DNA of 64,000 bases from an uncultured Planctomycetales bacterium (GTDB taxonomy: Bacteria > Omnitrophota > Gorgyraeia > Zapsychrales > Fredricksoniimonadaceae), in NCBI GenBank assembly GCA_964572155.1, contig CAZNDZ010000001.1:648840-712839 (forward strand), given 5' to 3'. The position numbers were made by a program, and so were the translations under genes. Below the pieces are notes generated by a model. That model had not been told where the DNA came from. It saw nothing but the letters and a program-made list of their open reading frames with translations, and made no database searches. This document shows, piece by piece, positions 18,102 to 35,181 of the stretch (within the stretch, counting starts at the first letter, position 1; each line of letters opens with the position of its first letter).

Positions 18102-18491
18102 ATGATGCTTTCAAGAAATAATCTTAATACGACGAAAGAAAAGGTTTATTTTGTTGTTCTTTTTTTATTGGCATGCGTTGTATGGCTGGGGGTTCCTTAT
18201 TGGATATATGTTAGTCATAATTTAATTCCTCTTTGGATAATGTTAGGGATTGGTTCTTTATTGGCATTTATGACATGGCTTGGAAATGGATTGATCGTTG
18301 CATATTTGAGGGCTAACTGCGTCAAGGTTGATTCTACACAATTCTCACAACTTGGGACGGCATTAGAGGAGGTTTGTAATCGTCTAGGCACGCGAGTTCC
18401 AGAACTTTATATCTTGCAGTCCAATGGTTTTCTTAATGCTTTTGCCATGCGCCAAAGTGGCAGGGATTTTGTAGTCTTATATTCAAAATAA
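18102..18491 (+). pseudogene. truncated HtpX/M48-family membrane protease gene (N-terminal 129 aa only; no HExxH)
   Basis: Two N-terminal TM helices, then ...LGTRVPELYILQSNGFLNAFAMRQSGRDFVVLYSK-stop. This is the conserved P-x-vy-i-x-s-x-x-NAFA segment that in M48 peptidases immediately precedes the HExxH helix. The ORF stops 2 nt before the 18-bp inverted repeat of the adjacent RAYT element. Confidence 0.45.
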
Positions 18492-18492
18492 A

Positions 18493-19233
18493 GAGAAAGG
18501 GACAGTCCCCAAAAAGGGGACAGGGAGTAATGATTAAATAACATCCTTCCCCGAGGATTTCAAATATATATAGATCAACCCCCCGCAAGAAATAGTAGGG
18601 GATTATGGTAAGGAAGGCGCGAAGTGGGTTGTTGTATGATGGGTGTTATGCTCATATTATTTCAAGATCGATTAGGAAGTTAAAAGTATTTCGAGATGAA
18701 GAAGATTTTAGTTTTTTCTTAAATAGTTTAAATGAATTAAAAGGATTGCATTCATTTAAAGTTTTTCACTATTGTCTCCTTCATACGCATTTTCATTTAG
18801 TTGTGCAGATTAAGTCAGTAAATAGTTTTTCTAAGAGTATGAATAAGTTAAAGAGTCAGTATGTTTTTAAATTTCATACTAAGTATCGATTAAGCGGACC
18901 AATATGGCGAGAGCGATATAAGAGTTTGTTGATTGAAGATGACCGGTATTTATATGCGTGTGGAAAATATGTTGAGAATAACCCAGTTGAAGCTGGATTA
19001 GTGAGGAAAGCAGAAGATTGGAAGTATGGTTCAGCGAGTGGTAGAGATAAGCATATTGTAGAAGTGTTGAAAGATACAACGATGATTGCAGAAATAGATG
19101 TATCTGACAAGAAACAATACGAGCGCGGGAATGCAATCGGGTCTGATTATTACAAGTATCAAATGAGGCAGAAATTAAGCAAGGAAAGTTGATAATGATA
19201 GGGTGTCCCCAAAATGGGGACTGTCCCTTTCTC
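18493..19233 (+). mobile_element. REPtron / IS200-like unit: Y1 HuH transposase bounded by perfect 18-bp inverted repeats GAGAAAGGGACAGTCCCC
   Basis: 18493-18510 GAGAAAGGGACAGTCCCC and 19216-19233 are exact reverse complements. Each end also folds as an imperfect hairpin (GGGACAGTCCCC-aaaaa-GGGGACAGGG; GGGTGTCCCC-aaaat-GGGGACTGTCCC). Confidence 0.7.
18605..19192 (+). CDS. IS200/IS605-like Y1 (HuH) transposase / REP-associated tyrosine transposase (RAYT)
   Basis: 195 aa; N-terminal ...YAHIISRS..., HuH motif HTHFHLVV, Tyr-containing distal region (WRERYKS, YLYACGKYVENNPVEAGLV). Confidence 0.75.
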   Translation: MVRKARSGLLYDGCYAHIISRSIRKLKVFRDEEDFSFFLNSLNELKGLHSFKVFHYCLLHTHFHLVVQIKSVNSFSKSMNKLKSQYVFKFHTKYRLSGPIWRERYKSLLIEDDRYLYACGKYVENNPVEAGLVRKAEDWKYGSASGRDKHIVEVLKDTTMIAEIDVSDKKQYERGNAIGSDYYKYQMRQKLSKES

Positions 19234-19517
19234 CTACGGTGGCTATGGAATATAATAAAGATCAGATTATATTTGCTGTAAGAAAGATTTTTAGAAATGA
19301 AGATCAGAATAAAGTTCTTGAAGAATTGAATTTGGAAGATTCAGGATCTATTAGGGTTTATTTAGCGGTTTTAAAATTAAGCAAAGGTAATCTAAAAGAT
19401 TTTTATTTATTCTTAAAAAAATCCCAAGAAGATTATAGGGATGTATTGTGGCAAGCGGAATATGAAGAAAATGGTGAAAAAGAATTGATTAATCCTTATA
19501 AACAGATTTTAACATAA
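19203..19517 (+). CDS. hypothetical protein (104 aa) between the two RAYT units
   Basis: ORF only; its start overlaps the right inverted repeat of the first RAYT unit. Confidence 0.25.
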   Translation: MSPKWGLSLSPTVAMEYNKDQIIFAVRKIFRNEDQNKVLEELNLEDSGSIRVYLAVLKLSKGNLKDFYLFLKKSQEDYRDVLWQAEYEENGEKELINPYKQILT

Positions 19518-19725
19518 AGATGCAATTCCATAACGATCATATCTTGAAAGTCAAAGTTCAACAGTCCGGAGATATATTTATAAATGGTAAACTTGTTTCA
19601 TGGATAGAATTTGAAAAGGCTCTATCTAATTTAAAAGAAATAAAAGGGGCTGTTTGGTTTTATCGGCAAAATGCAATTGGGATACAGAATGAAATAGCAG
19701 AACAGGTTTTTACAAAAGTATTGGG

Positions 19726-19745
19726 AATAAATAGTGTCGTTTCTC
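19726..19745 (-). repeat. REP-B unit in inverted orientation (AATAAATAGTGTCGTTTCTC)
   Basis: Exact reverse complement of the 20-bp GAGAAACGACACTATTTATT units found 3' of the second RAYT gene, giving the inverted-flank REPtron arrangement. Confidence 0.7.
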
Positions 19746-19848
19746 ACAACAACAAGCATTGTAAGTATTTATAAATAATTCAGGATCCCCCTCCTGAAGC
19801 AACCTAAAAATAAACTAATCCCCCCGCATAAACAGAAAGAGTAAGTTC

Positions 19849-20550
19849 ATGGGAAGGGATGCGCGTGTTTGTCAAACTGGGTTGACGTATCATGTGATTA
19901 ATCGAGGGAATAATAGGGAAGTAATTTTTGTTGAGCAAGAAGATTATACGCATTATTTAAATACGGTACAAAGATACAAAAAGAAGTATGGTTTTAAACT
20001 GTTTGCATTTTGCTTAATGACCAACCATGTACATATGTTGATAAAGGTTGAGGGAGATGTAAGCATAAGTCGGATTATGCAATCGATCACTATCGCACAT
20101 ACACGCTTTTATAATTATAAATATCAGCGTAGTGGGCATGTTTGGCAAGGACGGTTTATGAGTCCAATTGTGAGCGAGGATGATCATTTGCTGACGGTTA
20201 TGAGATATATCGAACAAAATCCACTACGTGCACGAATGGTTAAAGATGTGGGAGAATATCGATGGAGTAGTTATTTATTGAATGTGCGAGAACAAGAGTC
20301 AAAAATGATTGACCGTGAAGTGAATTTGGTTTTTAATAGATTGGGCGTTGATGTAAAAGCGAGGATCAAGCGCTATCGAGAGGGAATGCAAGAGGATATT
20401 AAAAAGAAAGAGCTTGAGGCGATACAGACAACTACGAGAAAAAGTGGTAATTATGTATCAAGTTTGTTTCAGGAGCAATTTAATAAATTGTTACCAAATA
20501 AAAAGAAACGAGGTCGTCCGAAGAAGGTTGAATTAATTGTAAATATCTGA
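19849..20550 (+). CDS. IS200-like Y1 (HuH) transposase / RAYT with C-terminal AT-hook-like tail
   Basis: 233 aa; LTYHVINRGNNRE N-terminus, HuH motif NHVHMLIKV, distal RSGHVWQGRF / RYIEQNPLRARMV region, C-terminal KKKRGRPKKVE (GRP AT-hook-like). Confidence 0.75.
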   Translation: MGRDARVCQTGLTYHVINRGNNREVIFVEQEDYTHYLNTVQRYKKKYGFKLFAFCLMTNHVHMLIKVEGDVSISRIMQSITIAHTRFYNYKYQRSGHVWQGRFMSPIVSEDDHLLTVMRYIEQNPLRARMVKDVGEYRWSSYLLNVREQESKMIDREVNLVFNRLGVDVKARIKRYREGMQEDIKKKELEAIQTTTRKSGNYVSSLFQEQFNKLLPNKKKRGRPKKVELIVNI

Positions 20551-20565
20551 AATTAATTAGTTTCT

Positions 20566-20848
20566 GAGAAACGACACTATTTATTCGAGGAATAATTGAG
20601 TATTCTTAAAATACTAGCAATTTTAACCCCCCAGTGAATTAATTATAAGTTCTTTTGATTGAACGCTTTGTGAGAAACGACACTATTTATTTATGTATCA
20701 AGTTTGTTTCAGGAGCAATTTAATAAATTGTTACCAAATAAAAAGAAACGAGGTCGTCCGAAGAAGGTTGAATTAATTGTAAATATCTGAAATTAATTAG
20801 TTTCTGAGAAACGACACTATTTATTCTAGAGAAACGACACTATTTATT
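20566..20848 (+). repeat. four direct copies of the 20-bp REP-B unit GAGAAACGACACTATTTATT
   Basis: Identical copies at 20566-20585, 20672-20691, 20806-20825 and 20829-20848; irregular spacing, so not CRISPR-like. Confidence 0.8.
20691..20826 (+). repeat. 136-bp perfect direct duplicate of 20451-20586 (last 100 nt of the RAYT gene plus one REP-B unit)
   Basis: Identical strings read directly (ttatgtatcaagtttgtttcaggagcaatttaataaattgttaccaaataaaaagaaacgaggtcgtccgaagaaggttgaattaattgtaaatatctgaaattaattagtttctgagaaacgacactatttattc). Confidence 0.85.
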
Positions 20849-20934
20849 CTATTTATTTCAATGTGTCCCAATATTTTTTGTTTCTAAATAGAGATTGATA
20901 AAGAAGTTAAAAGACGAAATAAGGTGGGAGGGTA

Positions 20935-22089
20935 TTGATGAGAATTTTTAGATGGTTTTTATTCGTATCTTTTGTTGTAGTGGCATCAGGGTGTGCATCA
21001 ACGATGAGTGCGGTAAAGAGTAATGCTAGCTTTTCTAAGTATAAGAAAGTATATGTTTTGAATTTTAAGGATGATCCAAGGAAAGTTATACCTAAAGTTG
21101 TAAATCAATTTAAGAAATTAGGTCTTGAGGTTGTCTTAACTAAAGAGGGTGAACCTGTTGGGGGGACGCAAGGAACCGGCTATATTATCAATGCTGACGG
21201 ATATGTCTTAACAGCAGCGCATGTTTTGAATCATGAGAAGACAGTTACGGTTTGGGTAAATAAAGTGCAATATGAAGCAGAAGTTATTTATAAAGAAGAG
21301 GATGATAAAGAAGAGGATTCTGTCGATAATAATCATTTAAGTCTTCAGAAATCGTTAGAGAAGTCATTAAACTCAAAGAATAATCAGTCTATTGCTGAAT
21401 TTGTTAATAATCGTGATCTAGCATTATTGAAGATTATATCTGATAAAAAAGATTTTCCTACTTTGGTTTTTTCTAAGTCTCCCGCATATGTTATGGGGCA
21501 ACAAATATATACTTTAGGTTTTCCTTTAAGCAATATTCTTGGGGATACACCACGGTTAAACCAAGGGGTCATAAGTTCTGCAGTTGGGATTAAAGACAAT
21601 GATAAATTTATTCAAATTTCTGCTGAAGTGCAGCCAGGAAACAGCGGAGGGCCATTGTTATCGCAAGATGGGAAGGTTACAGGAATGATTGTGATGTCAT
21701 TAAGACAGGGTCAAAATATAAATTTTGCTCTTAAAAGCGAGCATTTAAAAGAGTTTATTAATAATGCGAACAAAAAAGCTAAAATAGGGCTTAATTTAAA
21801 CTATTCTGATAAGTCTTCTTTAGAAAACGTTCAAGAGGCGCTAGTTCAAATTCGTTCTGGAAGAATTTCTCCTGAGTTCAAAAAAGAGCCAAAGCTTGTT
21901 TGTTCGTTCCGTTATGAATATTTGTGGGATATGTGGAATCGATTTGCTTTATTTGATCTATCTTTGTTTGATTGGGATACGGACGAGATCCTATTGCGTG
22001 CTGGTCAATATGGTGATAATCCAATGACGAATGAAAATAGCACCATTGATAATGTTTTTAGAGAAATAAAGAATAAGTTAAATTTGTAG
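20935..22089 (+). CDS. lipoprotein with trypsin-like (S1) serine protease domain
   Basis: Lipobox VVVASG/C; catalytic-triad contexts TAAHV (His), DLALLKI (Asp), GNSGGPL (Ser); 384 aa with C-terminal extension. Confidence 0.7.
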   Translation: MMRIFRWFLFVSFVVVASGCASTMSAVKSNASFSKYKKVYVLNFKDDPRKVIPKVVNQFKKLGLEVVLTKEGEPVGGTQGTGYIINADGYVLTAAHVLNHEKTVTVWVNKVQYEAEVIYKEEDDKEEDSVDNNHLSLQKSLEKSLNSKNNQSIAEFVNNRDLALLKIISDKKDFPTLVFSKSPAYVMGQQIYTLGFPLSNILGDTPRLNQGVISSAVGIKDNDKFIQISAEVQPGNSGGPLLSQDGKVTGMIVMSLRQGQNINFALKSEHLKEFINNANKKAKIGLNLNYSDKSSLENVQEALVQIRSGRISPEFKKEPKLVCSFRYEYLWDMWNRFALFDLSLFDWDTDEILLRAGQYGDNPMTNENSTIDNVFREIKNKLNL

Positions 22090-22107
22090 AAAAGAGGGAA
22101 ATGGCCA

Positions 22108-22135
22108 AATAAATAGTGTCTGCGCGCTATTTATT
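22108..22135. repeat. hairpin AATAAATAG-tgtctgcgcg-CTATTTATT containing an inverted REP-B core (AAATAGTGTC)
   Basis: 9-bp perfect stem read directly, 19 nt after the protease stop codon. Confidence 0.6.
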
Positions 22136-22193
22136 GTAAAATGCTAATAACATTTTTATAGAAATTGTTATTAACAAATGTTATACTTTTACG

Positions 22194-23162
22194 ATGAAAC
22201 CTCCATTTGATATTACTCCTAGGATTTTGAATTTAACGGCTGGAATCAGCGCTATGATTGGGCGTCTTGAGGCTTCTCGTTTGAAAATTCCTCTCGTTGA
22301 TCTTAGGCGTCAGGTAGATGCGTCCTCAATACATTCTAGTTGTATTATCGAGGGTAATACATTAACACTAGATCAAGTGACAGATGTTATTAATGGAAAA
22401 CGTGTTCTTGGGCCTAAGAAAGATATTCTTGAGATTAAGAATGCGCATAAACTTTATAGCAAGATCAATGAGTTTAACCCTTTAAATGAAAAAGATCTTT
22501 TACAAGCTCATAAAATTCTTATGGAAGGGTTGGTTGACAGACCTGGAAAAATACGAGGTACGGGTGTTGTAGTAGCGGCACAAGGTAAGGTGGTTCATAC
22601 TGCACCACCACACCAGAGAGTTGCAGGATTGATATCGCAGCTTTTTAACTTTATTGCTGAATCAAAAGATCTACATGTTTTGATTACTTCGAGCATTTTT
22701 CATTATGAATTTGAATTTATTCATCCTTTTGAAGATGGTAATGGTCGTATGGGAAGATTTTGGCAGACTTTAATGTTAAGACAAAGTAGATTGGCATATA
22801 ACCTTGTTCCCATTGAAACGGCCATTAAACAACATCAATCCGAGTATTATCAAGCAATTGCTCAATCCAACAAAGATGGTAAATCAACATTCTTTGTTGA
22901 GTTTATGCTCGGAATAATTCTGGAGGCTGTTTTAGATTTAGAAAAACTTGTATCTGGTCGGGCTAAACCAAAAGATCGAATAGCATACATGATGAAAAAC
23001 TGTCCTTTAGAATTTACACGACAAGAATATATAGAAATCATGGGAGATATTGAAGTGCACACGGCATCAAGAGATTTGAATCAAGCCGTAAAATTAGGAT
23101 TACTGAAAATGAAGGGTAGTCGAGCTACAGCAGTCTATAGAAAAATTAGAAATACCGCATAA
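22194..23162 (+). CDS. Fic family protein (AMPylation/phosphocholination-type fold) with C-terminal winged-helix-like domain
   Basis: Canonical Fic motif HPFEDGNGRMGRF; 322 aa; partial REP-B core GACACTATTTAT at 23168-23179 just after the stop. Confidence 0.85.
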   Translation: MKPPFDITPRILNLTAGISAMIGRLEASRLKIPLVDLRRQVDASSIHSSCIIEGNTLTLDQVTDVINGKRVLGPKKDILEIKNAHKLYSKINEFNPLNEKDLLQAHKILMEGLVDRPGKIRGTGVVVAAQGKVVHTAPPHQRVAGLISQLFNFIAESKDLHVLITSSIFHYEFEFIHPFEDGNGRMGRFWQTLMLRQSRLAYNLVPIETAIKQHQSEYYQAIAQSNKDGKSTFFVEFMLGIILEAVLDLEKLVSGRAKPKDRIAYMMKNCPLEFTRQEYIEIMGDIEVHTASRDLNQAVKLGLLKMKGSRATAVYRKIRNTA

Positions 23163-23289
23163 ACACTGACACTATTTATATTTTCATTGTCGTTTTTAAA
23201 TAGTTTTGAAACCTCTTCCTTATAACTTCATATATTTATATAATCTAAGAAGCTTTGATGTATATAAATTAACCAAAGAGTGACTTTTT

Positions 23290-23775
23290 ATGCAATGGAT
23301 GATGCGTGTCATTTTTGTATTAGAGAAGGTGTTTATCCTAGTGGCGGTAGCTTTGGTTGTTTATGCGGTGATTTATTTGAATAAGCCGGTTGCATTGCCA
23401 GTGGTTTTAACACAGACAGCAAGTGTTGATGTTTCATCGACGGACAATGTAGTAGAAATGGCGTTGGTTTCTAGTGCTGATGTGGGGGTGGTTGAGCCGC
23501 AGCGGGATTTGTTTGATGCCGCAGGTGCGCCAGCGGATTTGGGCGTCAATAATGCGGCGATGTCTAATATGTTGCCGGCAAATTTTAAGGTGGTGGGGAT
23601 CATCATCGGACAGTCATCTCAAATTGCCATCGAAGACACCGCATCGCATCAGACCTACATCATTGCCAAGGGTAGTCAAGAACAAGGCATTGAGGTCATG
23701 GATATTCATCGGGATCAGGCATTGTTAAAATATCAGGGGCAGGCGATCACCTTGCCATTACAATTAAAACAATGA
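23290..23775 (+). CDS. gspC: GspC/PilP-like secretin-associated T2SS component
   Basis: N-terminal TM helix, then a short beta-rich domain (FKVVGIIIGQSSQIAIEDTASHQTYIIAKG...) like the GspC HR/PilP domain; directly precedes the secretin gene with overlapping stop/start. Confidence 0.4.
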   Translation: MQWMMRVIFVLEKVFILVAVALVVYAVIYLNKPVALPVVLTQTASVDVSSTDNVVEMALVSSADVGVVEPQRDLFDAAGAPADLGVNNAAMSNMLPANFKVVGIIIGQSSQIAIEDTASHQTYIIAKGSQEQGIEVMDIHRDQALLKYQGQAITLPLQLKQ

Positions 23776-25472
23776 TAAAAATCTTTTATCTCATCTTGTC
23801 GGTTTTTTTCGCGCTTGGGCCCGCCATTGCGCAAGAAGCAGACGTTCCCGTCGTTGCTTCCAAACAAATGCTAGATGTTTTAGAACTCAAAGATATGGAT
23901 ATCAATGATGTTTTTAAGCTCATCTCATCTAAGACGGGCATTAATATCATCGCTGGAAAAAATGTCCAAGGGCGTGTGACGATTTATCTGAAAGATGTGG
24001 AAGTGCATGACGCATTGCATATTATTCTAGAAGCCAACGACTTGGCGTATATGGAAAGTCGCGGGATCATGCAAATTGTGCAAGCGGCAGATTTTGAACG
24101 CATGTTTGGTTACAAGTTTGGACAAACCACAGTGCGCAAAGTCGTGGCCTTAAAAGGCATGAATGCAACAGACGCGGCGGTATTATTAGCAAATTTCAAA
24201 AGCACGTCGGGAAAAGTCATTGCGGATGAGCAATCAAACTCACTGGTCATCGAGGAACAGCCTGCCAATTTAAGGAGCATGGAAGATTTCTTAAGTACGA
24301 TAGATGTGCCGGCTCAAACCAAAGCGTTTGAGCTTATGTTTGTGCAAGCCGATGCCATCACCGCGCGCATCGCCGAAATTTTAACACCAAAAGTTGGCAC
24401 CATCCGTTTTGACGCGCAATCTAATAAAATTTTTGTTAAAGATACAGAAGCAAAACTAAAAGACGTGGCAAATTTATTGCAGATGTTAGATGTGCCACGG
24501 CGCACGCAGGTTTTCGAATTAAGCTATATGAAAGCGGAAGACATGGTCAAGGCGATCACGTCGCTGTTAACCAAGGACATTGGTCACGCGGAGGTTGATG
24601 TCAAAGGTAACAAGTTGGTGGTAACAGACATCGCGCCTAAGATTGTTGAGATTACGAGGGTCATCGACGCGCTTGATAAAAAAGATCAACAGGTTCTGAT
24701 TGAGGCAAGGATTGTGCAGGTTTCGTTGACGGATAAGACCAAGCTTGGCATCAATTGGGACGCGGTGATTAATAAATGGCATGACACGCGCATGACCAAT
24801 GATTTTGGATTAGGTGATGCGGTTAATCCCAAAGGGGTGTTAAGCATTGGCACCATCGATAATGACCAATATAGTTTTGTGATGGAGGCGTTAAATTCTT
24901 CTGGGAAAACACGCCTATTATCAAACCCCAGCATCGCGGTTGTCAATAATCAGGAAGCGAAGATTTTGGTTGGGACCACCAAGCCTTATGTGACGACAAC
25001 CACCACAACCCCGTCATCCGGGCCAACGAGCATATCAGAAGCGGTGACATTCATTGACGTGGGTGTCAAGTTGACGGTCACTCCGACAATTCATAAAGAT
25101 GGTTATATCACCATGAAGATAAAGCCAGAGGTGTCTTCCGCTACATCGTCCTTGGTTACAGGTTCTAAGAATGAAATCCCCATTGTTGATACGTCGACTG
25201 TTGATACAACCATCCGCGTCATGGATGGGGTAACAATTGTTTTAGGCGGCCTTATCAAAGATGAGCGGTCAGCGAATAATAGTCAAGTGCCTGTGCTTGG
25301 TAAAATACCTCTGGTAGGTGCTGCTTTTCGCCAAAAAAGTGATTCCATAGAAAAGACTGAGATCATGGTCTTTTTAACGCCCCGCATCATTACGGGGGAT
25401 ATTCAAGCCAATGATAAGAATCCTAAGCTGATCAAAGGCGATAAAGTGTATTCCGACCATCCAATCGAGTAA
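23772..25472 (+). CDS. gspD: type II secretion system secretin GspD
   Basis: Signal peptide, N0/N1-like domains, C-terminal secretin domain (...VPVLGKIPLVGAAFRQKSDSIEKTEIMVFLTPRII...). Confidence 0.85.
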   Translation: MIKIFYLILSVFFALGPAIAQEADVPVVASKQMLDVLELKDMDINDVFKLISSKTGINIIAGKNVQGRVTIYLKDVEVHDALHIILEANDLAYMESRGIMQIVQAADFERMFGYKFGQTTVRKVVALKGMNATDAAVLLANFKSTSGKVIADEQSNSLVIEEQPANLRSMEDFLSTIDVPAQTKAFELMFVQADAITARIAEILTPKVGTIRFDAQSNKIFVKDTEAKLKDVANLLQMLDVPRRTQVFELSYMKAEDMVKAITSLLTKDIGHAEVDVKGNKLVVTDIAPKIVEITRVIDALDKKDQQVLIEARIVQVSLTDKTKLGINWDAVINKWHDTRMTNDFGLGDAVNPKGVLSIGTIDNDQYSFVMEALNSSGKTRLLSNPSIAVVNNQEAKILVGTTKPYVTTTTTTPSSGPTSISEAVTFIDVGVKLTVTPTIHKDGYITMKIKPEVSSATSSLVTGSKNEIPIVDTSTVDTTIRVMDGVTIVLGGLIKDERSANNSQVPVLGKIPLVGAAFRQKSDSIEKTEIMVFLTPRIITGDIQANDKNPKLIKGDKVYSDHPIE

Positions 25473-25481
25473 GGACAAAAC

Positions 25482-27167
25482 GTGCGTTGGCAAAAGAGAT
25501 CGCTGTTGGGACAATTTCTTTTAAATCAAGGGGCTGTTGCCCAAGAACAGCTCGATGCCGCGCTTGATGAACAAAAACGCACAAAAGAGCTTTTAGGGCA
25601 GATCCTCCTGCGTAAAGGTTATATTAGCGACGAGCAAGTCATCCTAACCTGCCTGTCAGATCAATTGCACATCGAAACAATCAGCTTAAAACAAATCACC
25701 CCAGATGCCAATGCTTTAGCGCGACTACCAGCCAAAGCCGCGAATTATTATAAAGTTTTTCCCATTAACATGAGCAATGGTGTTCTTAAAGTGGCCGTGC
25801 ATGATCCTCTGGATTTAAGGGTCTTGGATGATTTAAATCTCATGGCCCGTTGTCCGGTGGTCACAGTCTTGGCATCACAAAAAGAAATCATTGAGGCCAT
25901 CCGTGAACATTATGGCTTAGGCGCTGAGACCATTGAGCAAATGATGGGCACCACAGCCCAAATGTCCAATGAACAAGAAGTCACCGTCATTGATGAGGCT
26001 GATTCCGACGCGTCCATTAGCCGTTTCTTAAATCAAATTCTGTTGCAAGCTTATAAAGATCACGCCACCGACGTGCACATCGAGCCTTTTGAAGAATCCT
26101 TGCGCATCCGATACCGCATCGACGGGGTTTTATATGACGCTGGTATCCCATCTAACTTGAAGTATTTTGCTGATGTGTTAATCACGCGTGTCAAAGTCTT
26201 AGCCAATTTAAATATTGCTCAGAAACGTTTGCCGCAAGACGGCCGTTTTAAAGTGAAGGTGGCGGACATTGAATTGGATTTGCGGGTGTCGTTTTTACCG
26301 ACGTCCTATGGTGAAAGTGTTGTGATCCGTATTTTAAATTCAGTTAAGCTCTTGAGTTTAGAAGAATTGGGTTTTGGCCCGGCTCATCGTGAAACCATCA
26401 AGCAATTATTGGAAACACCGCATGGCATTATTTTTGTGACAGGTCCGACGGGAAGCGGGAAAACAACCACGCTCTATGCCTGCTTGTCAGCGATCAACAG
26501 CGAAGAAACAAAAATCATCACGATCGAAGACCCCATTGAATATCAACTTAAAGGCATTGTTCAAGTTCAGGCTTTCACGCAGATCGGTTTAACCTTTGCA
26601 TCAATCTTGCGCTCAGTCTTGCGTAATGATCCGGATGTGATCATGGTCGGTGAAGTTCGCGACGCAGAAACCGCGCAGATCACCATTCAAACCGCCCTGA
26701 CGGGCCATTTGGTATTTTCAACCTTGCACACCAATGATGCAGCCTCCGCCGTGACCCGCTTGTTGGACATGGGCATCGAGCCGTATCTGATCGCATCTTC
26801 CGTCGAGTGCTTTGTTGCCCAACGCTTGGTGAGAACCTTGTGCCCACATTGCAAACAGAAAGTACCATTAACACAGGATATCGCCGCAGAGTTTGGCATA
26901 AAAGCCATTGAGCCATCCGCTGTTGTCTATAAAGCCAATGGCTGTAAACATTGCCGCATGACAGGGTATGTGGGGCGAGAAATCATTTGTGAGACTTTAA
27001 AGATGAATGATGAGATCCGTGCATTGATCATGAAGCAGGCAACTGCTCAAGAGATTTTACAAAAAGCAACGATGCAAGGGATGCAGACGATGCGCGCTCA
27101 TGGTTTAAGTAAAATCTTAGCAGGCATCACCACAACAGCAGAAGTGCTGCAAGCAACTCAAGAATAG
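25482..27167 (+). CDS. gspE: type II secretion ATPase GspE
   Basis: GspE N-terminal domain, Walker A GPTGSGKTTT, Asp and His boxes, C-terminal tetracysteine CPHC...CKHC. Confidence 0.95.
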   Translation: MRWQKRSLLGQFLLNQGAVAQEQLDAALDEQKRTKELLGQILLRKGYISDEQVILTCLSDQLHIETISLKQITPDANALARLPAKAANYYKVFPINMSNGVLKVAVHDPLDLRVLDDLNLMARCPVVTVLASQKEIIEAIREHYGLGAETIEQMMGTTAQMSNEQEVTVIDEADSDASISRFLNQILLQAYKDHATDVHIEPFEESLRIRYRIDGVLYDAGIPSNLKYFADVLITRVKVLANLNIAQKRLPQDGRFKVKVADIELDLRVSFLPTSYGESVVIRILNSVKLLSLEELGFGPAHRETIKQLLETPHGIIFVTGPTGSGKTTTLYACLSAINSEETKIITIEDPIEYQLKGIVQVQAFTQIGLTFASILRSVLRNDPDVIMVGEVRDAETAQITIQTALTGHLVFSTLHTNDAASAVTRLLDMGIEPYLIASSVECFVAQRLVRTLCPHCKQKVPLTQDIAAEFGIKAIEPSAVVYKANGCKHCRMTGYVGREIICETLKMNDEIRALIMKQATAQEILQKATMQGMQTMRAHGLSKILAGITTTAEVLQATQE

Positions 27168-33075: not shown

Positions 33076-35181
33076 ATGCAGACAGTCCGTGTCGAGGCTC
33101 CGTTTGGCGCCCAAACCATCACGATTGAATCAGGTAAATTAGCAAAATTAGCGGGCGGCGCTGTTACCGTTACCGTTGGTGGTACCGTTGTTCTGGTCAC
33201 CGCTTGTATGGCCAAAAAAGCCAAAGAAGGCCAAGGGTTTTTCCCTTTAGCTGTTGAATATCAAGAACGCACCTACGCCGCTGGTAAAATCCCAGGCGGT
33301 TTCTTTAAACGTGAAGGTCGTCCGTCTGAACGTGAAGTGTTAGTGTCCCGTTTGATTGATCGTCCAACCCGTCCATTATTCCCAGAAGGTTTCTTAAATG
33401 AAGTTCAAGTTGTGGCAACTGTTTTGAGCCACGACGGTGAAAATGATCCTGATATCTTAGCGATGATCGGTTCGTCCGCTGCGCTATTGATTTCTGAAAT
33501 TCCTTTCGATGGTCCAATCGGCGCAACCCGTATTGGTTTGATTGATGGTCAATTGGTGGCTAACCCAACGTTTGCACAACGTGCGAACAGCGCGATGGAT
33601 TTGGTTATCGCTGGTTGGGGTGAAGGCATCATCATGATTGAAGGCGAAGGCGATCAAGTTCCAGAAGCTAAAGTTTTGGAAGCCATGAAGTTAGCGTTAG
33701 ACACCCAAAAAGCGTATATCGCTATTCAAAAAGAATTACAGAAGCAAGTTGGTAAACCAAAAGCTGCTTTTGAAGCCAAACAACCTAATGAAAAGTTTGC
33801 TAAAAAAGTACGCACTTTAGGTTTTGATCGTTTGCAAAAAGCATATACTACGATCGCTGATAAAGCTGAACGTGAAGATGCGGTCAACGCGATCTTCCAT
33901 GATTTAACCAAGGACATGACCATCTATGCAGATTGTGTCGTTACCGAAGGTGAAGAATTCTCCGCCGGTGATGTTAATCATGTGTATGAAGCTTTGCAAT
34001 ATGAAATCATCCGCAACAATGTGTTCCAAAAACAATTGCGTGCTGATGGCCGTGGTTTAAAAGAAATTCGTCAAATCGATTCTGAAGTGGGTGTTTTACC
34101 ACGTACCCATGGTTCATCCTTATTTACCCGCGGTCAAACCCAAGCTTTGGGTGTTGTGACCTTAGGTACCAAGGATGATGAGCAATTGATCGAATCTTTA
34201 GAAAGCAGAACATACAAGACCTACATGTTGCATTATAATTTCCCATCATTCTCTGTTGGTGAAACAAAGCGCATGGGTTCTCCTGGTCGTCGTGAAATTG
34301 GCCACGGTGCTTTAGCTTCTAAAGCGATTAAATATGTCATCCCATCACGCGAAGATTTTCCTTACACCATCCGCGTGGTTTCTGAAATCTTAGAATCCAA
34401 TGGTTCTTCTTCTATGGCCTCCGTGTGTGCTGGTTGTTTAGCGCTTATGGATGCTGGTGTTCCGATCAAGGCTACTGTTGCTGGTATTTCCGTCGGTTTA
34501 ATCTCTGATGCGAAAGAAACAGTTTTGATCACCGACATCATGGGTTTAGAAGATCATTTCGGTGATATGGATTTCAAGGTGGCTGGTAGCCGTACCGGTG
34601 TGACCGCCATCCAATTAGATCTTAAGATCAAATCCTTGTCGATGAGCTTGGTTGAACGCACCATCGCACAAGCCAGAGAAGCGCGCATGATCATCTTAGA
34701 TAAGATGGAAAAAACCATGCCAGCGCCACGTAAAGAAATGTCACAATACGCACCTCGCATTGTCACCATTCAAATCCCACAAGAGAAAATCGGGGAAGTG
34801 ATTGGACCAGGCGGTAAAACGATCCGTAAGATGATCGAAGAAACAGGTGTTACCTCGATCGACATCGAAGAAGATGGTAAGGTGATCATTGCATCTCCAA
34901 ATGGCGAATCTTTAGATAAGGCTTATGCCATGATCAAGGGCATGACCCATGAACCTGAAGTCGGCGCTATTTTCGATGCGACGGTTAAACGTATCATGAA
35001 TTTCGGTGTGTTCGTCGAGTTCTTACCAGGCCGTGAAGGTTTGGTTCACGTTTCTGAACTTGCAAACAAGTTTGTTAAGGATGTTAACGAAGTTGTGAAG
35101 GTGGGCGACAAGTTTAAAGTAAAGCTTACTGAAAAAGATGAGCAAGGTCGCTTTAACTTAAGCAAAAAACAAGCCGAATAA
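33076..35181 (+). CDS. pnp: polyribonucleotide nucleotidyltransferase (PNPase)
   Basis: 701 aa; two RNase PH domains, KH (GPGGKTIRKMIEETG) and S1 (GAIFDATVKRIMNFGVFVEF) domains. Confidence 0.97.
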   Translation: MQTVRVEAPFGAQTITIESGKLAKLAGGAVTVTVGGTVVLVTACMAKKAKEGQGFFPLAVEYQERTYAAGKIPGGFFKREGRPSEREVLVSRLIDRPTRPLFPEGFLNEVQVVATVLSHDGENDPDILAMIGSSAALLISEIPFDGPIGATRIGLIDGQLVANPTFAQRANSAMDLVIAGWGEGIIMIEGEGDQVPEAKVLEAMKLALDTQKAYIAIQKELQKQVGKPKAAFEAKQPNEKFAKKVRTLGFDRLQKAYTTIADKAEREDAVNAIFHDLTKDMTIYADCVVTEGEEFSAGDVNHVYEALQYEIIRNNVFQKQLRADGRGLKEIRQIDSEVGVLPRTHGSSLFTRGQTQALGVVTLGTKDDEQLIESLESRTYKTYMLHYNFPSFSVGETKRMGSPGRREIGHGALASKAIKYVIPSREDFPYTIRVVSEILESNGSSSMASVCAGCLALMDAGVPIKATVAGISVGLISDAKETVLITDIMGLEDHFGDMDFKVAGSRTGVTAIQLDLKIKSLSMSLVERTIAQAREARMIILDKMEKTMPAPRKEMSQYAPRIVTIQIPQEKIGEVIGPGGKTIRKMIEETGVTSIDIEEDGKVIIASPNGESLDKAYAMIKGMTHEPEVGAIFDATVKRIMNFGVFVEFLPGREGLVHVSELANKFVKDVNEVVKVGDKFKVKLTEKDEQGRFNLSKKQAE

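Follow-up and report, generated by a model that had tools for sequence, protein, structure and literature searches.

The 64,000-nucleotide stretch of contig CAZNDZ010000001.1 analysed here (hereafter the window), from an uncultured Omnitrophota bacterium, carries at 19849-20550 on the + strand a gene for a 233-amino-acid Y1 (HUH) tyrosine transposase that stands between short inverted repeats, and the question it raises is what kind of system this gene and these repeats form. The original prediction described a transposase of the RAYT (REP-associated tyrosine transposase) type flanked by repetitive extragenic palindromic (REP) sequences. We consider it probable that the locus is instead a TIRtron, that is, a one-copy HUH/Y1 gene of the TIRYT type together with its cognate, bipartite terminal inverted repeats (TIRs) of 58 bp. 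TIRYTs are RAYT-like genes with long flanking TIRs, the two together being called TIRtrons, and their TIRs occur singly, as dimers or in groups (Di Nocera et al. 2013, PMC3733652). They are equated with RAYT group 1 (Bertels et al. 2017, PMC5581495) and with subclass 2.1 of the TnpA-Y1 proteins (Quentin et al. 2018, PMC6006769). Group 1 is the most insertion sequence (IS)-like of the RAYT groups, and the proteins of subclass 2.1 have a median length of 238 amino acids, no associated REPs, and the motifs NHVH, W[EQ], YIELNP or Y[IV]HLNP, and SS in the proximal tail (PMC6006769). The TIRtron class is already described but little studied, and the example reported here is in an Omnitrophota bacterium.

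The protein matched Pfam Y1_Tnp with 77 bits (E 1.6e-21). It just passed the NCBIfam REP_Tyr_transpos profile (81.8 bits against a cut-off of 80) and failed that for transpos_IS200 (35 bits against 55). Its sole sequence match in the PDB was E. coli TnpA-REP (4er8), which was also the best fold match to the AlphaFold2 model (pLDDT 90.3; Foldseek 4er8_A, E 1.8e-8), followed by the ISDra2 and IS608 transposases. The predicted RAYT-like Y1 transposase was thus confirmed. We located NHVH at residues 59-62 (HVH at 60-62), WQ at 99-100 (within WQGRF), the catalytic-tyrosine motif YIEQNP at 120, WSSY at 139 and RGRP at 221-224; YIEQNP differs from the YIELNP of subclass 2.1 at one position. The assignment to this subclass was made by inspection of these motifs against Table 1 of PMC6006769 rather than by placement in the tree of that paper. 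A length of 233 amino acids had been thought greater than is typical of RAYTs, but it is normal for subclass 2.1 and for the closest ~120 homologs, all of which are ~230 amino acids long and whose named sources are Omnitrophota except for one Anammoxibacter metagenome-assembled genome (MAG). The only plasmid homologs found were proteobacterial TIRYTs at 30-36% identity, and phage records gave one weak partial match.

The repeat first noticed at this locus is the 20-mer GAGAAACGACACTATTTATT. We found it without mismatch at 20566, 20672, 20806 and 20829 on the + strand and as the exact reverse complement (-) at 19726, in full agreement with the prediction that the Y1 gene has a single inverted copy on its upstream side and four direct ones on its downstream side; there was no further copy at up to 3 mismatches in the 64-kb window (expected 0.01). 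The inverted repeat is longer than this 20-mer, since 19725-19782 and 20529-20586 are 76% complementary over 58 nt and perfectly so over their terminal 21-24 nt. In an alignment of 54 ends from many assemblies, the end module consists of a subterminal block GAATTAWTTRTAAGT, a variable spacer of ~15 nt and a terminal block TRT-GAGAAACGACACYATTTATT(C), the terminal block of the element itself being GAATAAATAGTGTCGTTTCTC. Searches with a profile of the 54 ends recovered the left end module LE (19725-19782, - strand, 58 bp; nhmmer E 2.4e-14), with the terminal block GAATAAATAGTGTCGTTTCTCAC at its outer edge and the subterminal block TGAATTATTTATAAATA (minus-strand reading) at 19763-19782, and the right end module R1 (20529-20586, + strand, 58 bp; nhmmer E 1.9e-14). 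R1 overlaps the final 22 nt of the Y1 gene and its subterminal block GAATTAATTGTAAAT encodes the C-terminal ELIVN; the same overlap of gene and right module was present in the homologous elements of four loci fetched from other assemblies (L007, L015, L024 and L051). We noted that the conserved subterminal DNA block GAATTAATTGTAAGT (20529-20550 and homologs) doubles as the code for the last residues, ELIVS or ELIVN, and that the conservation of 'ELIV' at the C-terminus is probably a DNA-level constraint. On the left side, an 84-amino-acid open reading frame (ORF) at 19520-19774, with no Pfam match, reads through LE, where 19725-19745 encodes ...GINSVVSH...; either the element landed in the 3' end of this ORF or the ORF is spurious.

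These modules are not REPs. Single copies with their flanks folded no better than shuffled sequences (z -0.3 to -1.2), RNAalifold returned 0 consensus pairs for the alignment of the 54 ends, and neither GTAG nor GTGG, the two forms of the GT[AG]G foot, occurs within the 58-nt module. No known RNA family of the Rfam type was detected at E<=1 between 18.3 and 23.4 kb. Folding was obtained only when two inverted copies paired through their terminal 21-24 nt, and gene-less doublets of this kind from related genomes gave z values of -4.5 and -7.2. The conservation of the ends is one of sequence and not of structure, and what had been called a REP is the terminal block of a bipartite, non-palindromic 58-bp terminal inverted repeat of the sort described for TIRYTs (PMC3733652, PMC6006769). 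For annotation this means that a 'REP/RAYT' label on a gene of this kind can be misleading, since the repeats beside it are non-palindromic.

The same architecture recurs in other genomes. The exact 20-mer was present in at least 16 stretches of species-representative genomes among the matches listed, at least 12 of which are left once four matches without a subterminal block, all from unrelated taxa, are set aside, and GAGAAACGACACYATTTATT was present in 35 metagenome stretches; the named records with either sequence are mostly Omnitrophota MAGs. Seven loci (L018, L015, L024, L051, L038, L057 and L064) contain a homolog at 59-66% identity that is bracketed as in the window. In more distant homologs the block is changed in both arms, to GATATCTGACACC in L056 and to GAGTTCTGACACC in L058, L059 and L063, and the TIR therefore changes along with protein divergence. 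Many species of Omnitrophota have conserved both the arrangement of a gene between inverted ends and the terminal block. The related genomes also contain 10 gene-less doublets plus groups of ends, and in the fetched stretches related MAGs have ~10-13 copies. The doublets, of 102-204 bp, join a left and a right module and lie in differing flanks (L009, L013 with two, L008, L015, L036, L031, L037 and L027), and one MAG has at least 3 copies of a 159-bp doublet. In the window itself, the TIR copies include a solo module (R2), a group (R1-R4) and two relics. The end modules thus behave as discrete units that occur solo, in tandem and as gene-less inverted doublets. Target-site duplications (TSDs) flanking the TIRs, the criterion for ISs of the DDE type and for miniature inverted-repeat transposable elements, were absent, in that none of 17 full elements or doublets has a direct repeat adjoining its ends; this speaks against a DDE transposase and accords with HUH chemistry.

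On the right side of the gene the end is reiterated in a nested series of units of 136, 57, 23 and 9 nt that share a common outer terminus and differ in their inner extent. Beyond R1 lies a spacer of 48 nt (20587-20634), without similarity to the fetched loci or the remaining window, followed by the solo diverged end module R2 (20635-20691, + strand, 57 nt; nhmmer E 2.5e-12), which matches R1 at 75% identity and whose terminal 20-mer is perfect. Exactly abutting the outer edge of R2 is a 5'-truncated copy of the right part of the element (20691-20826, + strand), comprising the last ~100 nt of the gene and a further end, R3. It is a perfect 136-bp duplication of 20451-20586, with no further matching base at either end. 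The short unit R4 (20829-20851, + strand, 23 nt; nhmmer E 2.2e-5) contains the terminal block only and is an exact tandem of 20806-20828. The 9-nt CTATTTATT follows once more after R4, at 20849-20857; outside the element neighbourhood (19.7-22.2 kb) it has a single occurrence, at 35177. Residues 202-233 of the protein were found again by tblastn in 20691-20826. The original prediction had allowed for a pseudo-ORF from the 3' fragment of the gene, but on our reading of the frame there is no in-frame start before an upstream TGA, and we therefore describe the duplicated fragment as a remnant and not as an ORF. When the C-terminal 89 amino acids alone were searched against 1.84 billion representatives, there were only 12 matches, mostly short fragments, which says little on the distribution of this domain. 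Proteins matching this part alone (P0121-P0131) are mostly 59-118 amino acids long, which suggests that assemblies often contain 3' gene fragments of the 20691-20826 kind or contigs broken at the repeat.

Comparison with closely related strains bears on the reality and age of this array. A contig of the metagenome assembly GCA_013558375.1 (L001) is 100% identical to the window over 9849-20797, holds the junction of R2 with the gene fragment, and ends inside the second copy. A Logan contig from another run (L002) is identical to the window over 19725-23520 apart from having a single end copy, and its single-copy junction comprises seven 31-mers that are not present in the window. Logan contigs are built from a k=31 de Bruijn graph, and given the absence of these junction 31-mers from the window we therefore take L002 to be a genuine second haplotype. 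The right-end array is real and recent, since one near-identical strain has a single end copy, and the predicted 136-bp duplication linked to the repeat is upheld by its junction exactly at the outer edge of R2 and by the presence of that junction in L001. Either one or four end copies could be the ancestral state, since deletion between R1 and R4 would also yield L002. L002 starts exactly at 19725, the outer edge of LE; co-occurring variants whose sequence diverges immediately beyond this edge, such as the tandem left end of L054 described below, account for that start. All 77 differences between the window and L002 (98.7% identity overall) fall within 23520-26441, most of them at third-codon spacing inside the secretin gene (24.7-25.4 kb), and this interval looks like a recombination tract. 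The 862 identical nt of the element, set beside 98.7% overall, might suggest stronger conservation than in its flanks; we rejected this, as the 2.7 kb after the element are also identical. In a strain at 98.7% identity (L054/L055), the whole 58-nt left module is tandemly duplicated and, in L054, two tandem end modules of 56-59 nt from a diverged subfamily cut the Y1 gene at the position of window 20248, codon ~133. Nested right-end series sharing a terminus recur in independent elements (L056, L064 and L059); in L056 the right-end spacings are 49, 28, 18, 15, 13 and 15 nt, each unit ending in GACACCATTTTTT. A Pseudomonas aeruginosa TIRtron likewise has reiterated partial termini and a duplicated left end.

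Other identities for the element as a whole have to be weighed against that of a TIRtron. We judge it unlikely that gene and repeat are a canonical REP/RAYT system (REPtron) in which the 20-mer is a REP dispersed as REPINs by a domesticated RAYT. The protein does lie just over the REP-associated cut-off of NCBIfam and has TnpA-REP as its closest solved structure, the gene stands between inverted repeats, and the gene-less inverted doublets of related genomes are formally REPIN-like. However, the unit has neither a hairpin nor the GT[AG]G foot and the doublets pair via the terminal 21-24 nt only; in the 64 kb there are no copies beyond a 3.5-kb neighbourhood; and both motifs and length fit subclass 2.1, where no REPs were found. 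Moreover, the 20-mer is conserved across species, while REP families usually follow the host species. Very unlikely, in our view, is an autonomous IS, either IS200/IS605-like or of a new TIR-bearing kind, moving as the 862-bp unit 19725-20586. Clear ends and a transposase would suit it, as would the IS-like character of group 1 RAYTs and the occurrence of distant homologs on plasmids, but the NCBIfam IS200 score is 35 bits where 55 are needed, the active-site motif is Y---NP and not Y---Q, and there are no subterminal hairpins. Each contig set has one full copy, and the gene order (RHS toxin upstream, Fic and secretin downstream) recurs in lineages whose proteins are 49-65% identical. The left flank of the element does differ in the 98.7%-identical strain L054 (the intervals noted for this flank and for the interrupted Y1 gene are L054 1-964 and 1549-1703), and the L054/L055 flanks had no match among the fetched sequences. 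We did not accept this difference as proof of transposition, since the L054 flank encodes toxin-tip-like and immunity-like ORFs absent from the window, which has the look of cassette replacement at the same kind of RHS-type locus.

The reiterated ends invite two further explanations. An origin of the 136-bp duplication and of the end array in assembly error is scarcely credible: although L001 ends inside the second copy and L002 shows what might be a collapsed version with a single copy, L001 independently holds the unique junction of R2 with the gene fragment, the single-copy junction 31-mers of L002 mark a different real haplotype, and analogous arrays occur in unrelated assemblies. Enzyme-independent origin of the end-linked duplications (136, 57, 23 and 9 nt), by replication slippage or by unequal recombination between short A/T-rich direct repeats, is a possibility that we doubt, but for the short units it is an alternative to be taken seriously. 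There is A/T microhomology at the junctions, as in the shared TT that we read at the R2 junction, the L002 arrangement is derivable from the window by a simple deletion between the direct copies R1 and R4, and the short-period arrays of 13-15 nt in L056 resemble slippage products. Slippage accounts less readily for the combination of a fixed terminus and a variable inner extent, which recurs with different terminal sequences in the window, L056, L064, L059 and the P. aeruginosa element, or for the joining of the 136- and 58-nt units exactly at the module edge. Nothing comparable was seen at other A/T-rich sites of the window, the one CTATTTATT outside the neighbourhood (35177) included.

The C-terminal tail of the transposase was a further subject of the original prediction, which read it as an AT-hook-like motif unusual for the family. 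The protein ends ...NKKKRGRPKKVELIVNI, and KKKRGRPKK (217-225) scored 16.7 bits against the Pfam AT_hook profile (PF02178), just below the gathering score of 17.4. The resemblance thus stands, though sub-threshold, whereas the claim that it is unusual does not hold for this subclass: RGRP with flanking K/R occurs in 92 of the 120 closest homologs, and GRP tails are present in two proteobacterial plasmid homologs at 30-36% identity (...GQGRPRLE and ...KVGRPVGWRKK), both flanked by GGGGWSAS-type TIRs with an outer A/T run GAATAAAGGGGACAG.... In an alignment of 80 sequences, G222 and R223 are invariant and P224 is at least 90% conserved, level with the catalytic residues. The DNA coding for the tail differs synonymously between species, which implies selection on the protein. 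The tail is predicted to be disordered (pLDDT 50-69 over the last ~25 residues, from ~210) and to follow a helical domain, the region 160-214 being confidently helical in the model. Residues 145-233 matched AT_hook alone in Pfam at E<=10; HTH_23, HTH_28 and Bac_DnaA_C had no Pfam match in the C-terminal domain, nor was any helix-turn-helix (HTH) found in the two proteobacterial homologs, and a divergent HTH could still lie in 160-214. We dropped the idea that an AT-hook confined to Omnitrophota takes the place of the HTH, in view of the GRP tails of the P. aeruginosa and Iodobacter homologs. The classification paper of the family, PMC6006769, makes no mention of an AT-hook, with 0 occurrences of 'hook' in its text. 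We regard the tail as AT-hook-like and as a candidate DNA-reading element.

A mechanism can be proposed for a TIRtron that would also account for its nested ends. The enzyme, through H60/H62 and Y120, would make a nick in one strand, at the outer boundary of the terminal block (...TTTATT(C)|), and the invariant disordered GRP/AT-hook tail may help it to dock on the A/T run of the end. In single-stranded DNA the inverted terminal blocks could pair over 21-24 bp and so bring both cut sites together, and from such paired ends a doublet or the whole cassette might be cut out and re-inserted without duplication. Joining of the fixed terminus to ectopic upstream points, or re-insertion of truncated copies after an existing terminus, would give the 136-, 57-, 23- and 9-nt reiterations at 20587-20857. 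Nested copies that stop at one terminus point to repeated cutting and joining there, and the gene, for its part, seems not to hop but to have been passed on vertically at a conserved locus (RHS toxin ... Y1 ... Fic ... secretin). Taken to its full extent, the proposal is that the nested 5'-truncated reiterations are in vivo footprints of TIRYT catalysis, and that the GRP/AT-hook tail recognises the A/T run by which the cleavage point is set. On a still more speculative view, end modules and nuclease might serve in the exchange of toxin-tip and immunity cassettes, the element lying directly downstream of RHS/YD toxin genes in five lineages. We think this extended proposal rather unlikely to hold as a whole; if true, the footprints would be the first handle on where and how an uncharacterised class of Y1 enzymes cuts and joins DNA.

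Several observations count against the TIRtron interpretation or against the mechanism attached to it. The TIR core is TAGTGTCG(TTTCTC) here but GGGGWSAS in most, although not all, described cases, and the protein has no Pfam HTH whereas described TIRYTs have an HTH-like C-terminal domain. The cleavage site, its strand and the role of the tail are all putative. In some elements (L024, L018, L051, L038, L057 and L064) the terminal block on the left is an imperfect complement of that on the right, which weakens any requirement for pairing of the ends, and the insertion into the Y1 gene of L054 is not beside a TTTATT-like target. Polymerase slippage or unequal recombination at A/T microhomology could make nested arrays with no enzyme. 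The census of the source genome covers 64 kb, and since regions adjacent to RHS genes are variable islands, part of the 'synteny' may reflect island accumulation. Against this background the locus has practical value. TIRYTs (subclass 2.1 or RAYT group 1) are the largest RAYT-like group and have no biochemistry in the literature searched. The locus and its relatives offer a compact, defined substrate, a 58-bp module in which a block of 20 nt hardly varies across a phylum, and natural 'reaction products' in the form of nested terminus-anchored copies, gene-less doublets and strain polymorphisms. With these and with the conserved GRP tail, it can be tested directly where the enzyme cuts and what the tail does.

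Partial copies of the repeat downstream had been taken as a sign that it is dispersing through the surrounding island. The partial copies are real: the 12-mer GACACTATTTAT is present at 22109-22120 (-) and 23168-23179 (+), where 0.01 would be expected per window, and we therefore regard both as relics and not as chance matches. The first belongs to a relic AATAAATAGTGTC-tgcgcg-CTATTTATT at 22108-22135, a partial inverted block facing a partial direct block downstream of the protease gene, and the second (23168-23179, + strand) lies 6 nt past the Fic stop codon. Dispersal was not borne out. Besides the known copies and these two relics, the profile of 54 ends found nothing in the 64-kb window and 0 copies outside 19.7-23.2 kb. 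In another species (L010), a right-end remnant lies ~30-100 nt past the stop codon of a Fic homolog, the same relative position, and the 5' part of that Fic gene aligns to that of the window at 76% nucleotide identity; given this positional counterpart, the relic after Fic looks old rather than spreading.

The wider neighbourhood appears to be conserved as well. A very large SpvB/TcdB/RHS-YD polymorphic toxin gene occupies ~9849-15834 (1-5986 of L001), a few kb upstream of the Y1 genes, and an RHS/YD toxin lies upstream of the homolog in five lineages (window/L001, L057, L059, L061 and L064), the Y1 proteins of the other four being 49-65% identical to that of the window. A cluster of secretin and type II secretion system genes is nearby in the window, L059, L062 and L064, with Fic between toxin and cluster in the window and L064. 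This neighbourhood is suggestive of long residence at one locus, as is generally reported for RAYTs (PMC5581495). The G+C content of 16-24 kb is 0.34-0.38, compared with 0.39-0.46 in the flanks, and this low-GC island (16000-24000) contains two Y1 genes, a trypsin-like protease and the Fic protein. The other Y1 gene, adjacent upstream (18605-19192, 195 amino acids), encodes a protein 27% identical to the one studied here. It lies between perfect 18-nt TIRs GAGAAAGGGACAGTCCCC at 18493-18510 (+) and 19216-19233 (-), which are of the GGGGWSAS type, carry GGGACAG/GGGGACAG, and have no other copies in the window. The interval 18493-19233 is a second, adjacent TIRtron. An ORF at 18102-18491 (129 amino acids, with a weak, sub-threshold match to Pfam LNT_N) stops two bases before the left TIR of this element and may be a gene truncated by it.

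Comparison with known systems places the locus as follows. With the IS200/IS605 elements (IS608, ISDra2) it shares the Y1 catalytic core, a fixed cleavage point that defines the ends and, as would be expected, single-strand cutting and joining without target duplication. Those elements, however, lack TIRs and have directly oriented subterminal hairpins, a Y---Q motif, a TnpA of ~150 amino acids and many identical copies, none of which applies here. REPtrons, such as E. coli TnpA-REP/YafM (PDB 4er8) with its REP/BIME sequences and the Pseudomonas RAYT/REPIN systems, have the Y1 HUH fold that is the best structural match, and they too consist of a one-copy gene bracketed by inverted cognate repeats, with gene-less inverted doublets and no TSD. 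They differ in that REPs are hairpins of 20-40 nt with a 5' GT[AG]G foot, present in tens to hundreds of copies, whereas the repeat studied here has no hairpin, no GTAG and few copies, and its protein exceeds theirs by ~70 amino acids, having an additional helical domain and a tail that is basic. The closest likeness is to TIRYTs: a RAYT-like Y1 gene of ~235 amino acids with the motifs NHVH, W[EQ], YIE.NP and SS; long inverted repeats that are not REPs flanking the gene, one of them overlapping its 3' end; and TIR singles, dimers and groups in moderate number beside a low-copy gene. The TIRYT papers cited (PMC3733652, PMC6006769, PMC5581495) describe neither nested arrays of 5'-truncated termini nor a tail read as an AT-hook. 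What sets the present element apart is its bipartite end of 58 bp and its host phylum, Omnitrophota, and the likeness extends to individual elements, since the P. aeruginosa TIRYT WP_016252823.1 has the outer GAATAAA run and the C-terminal GRP tail in common with it, and the Iodobacter protein WP_130108377.1 shares the GRP tail together with an outer run of the AATAAC type.

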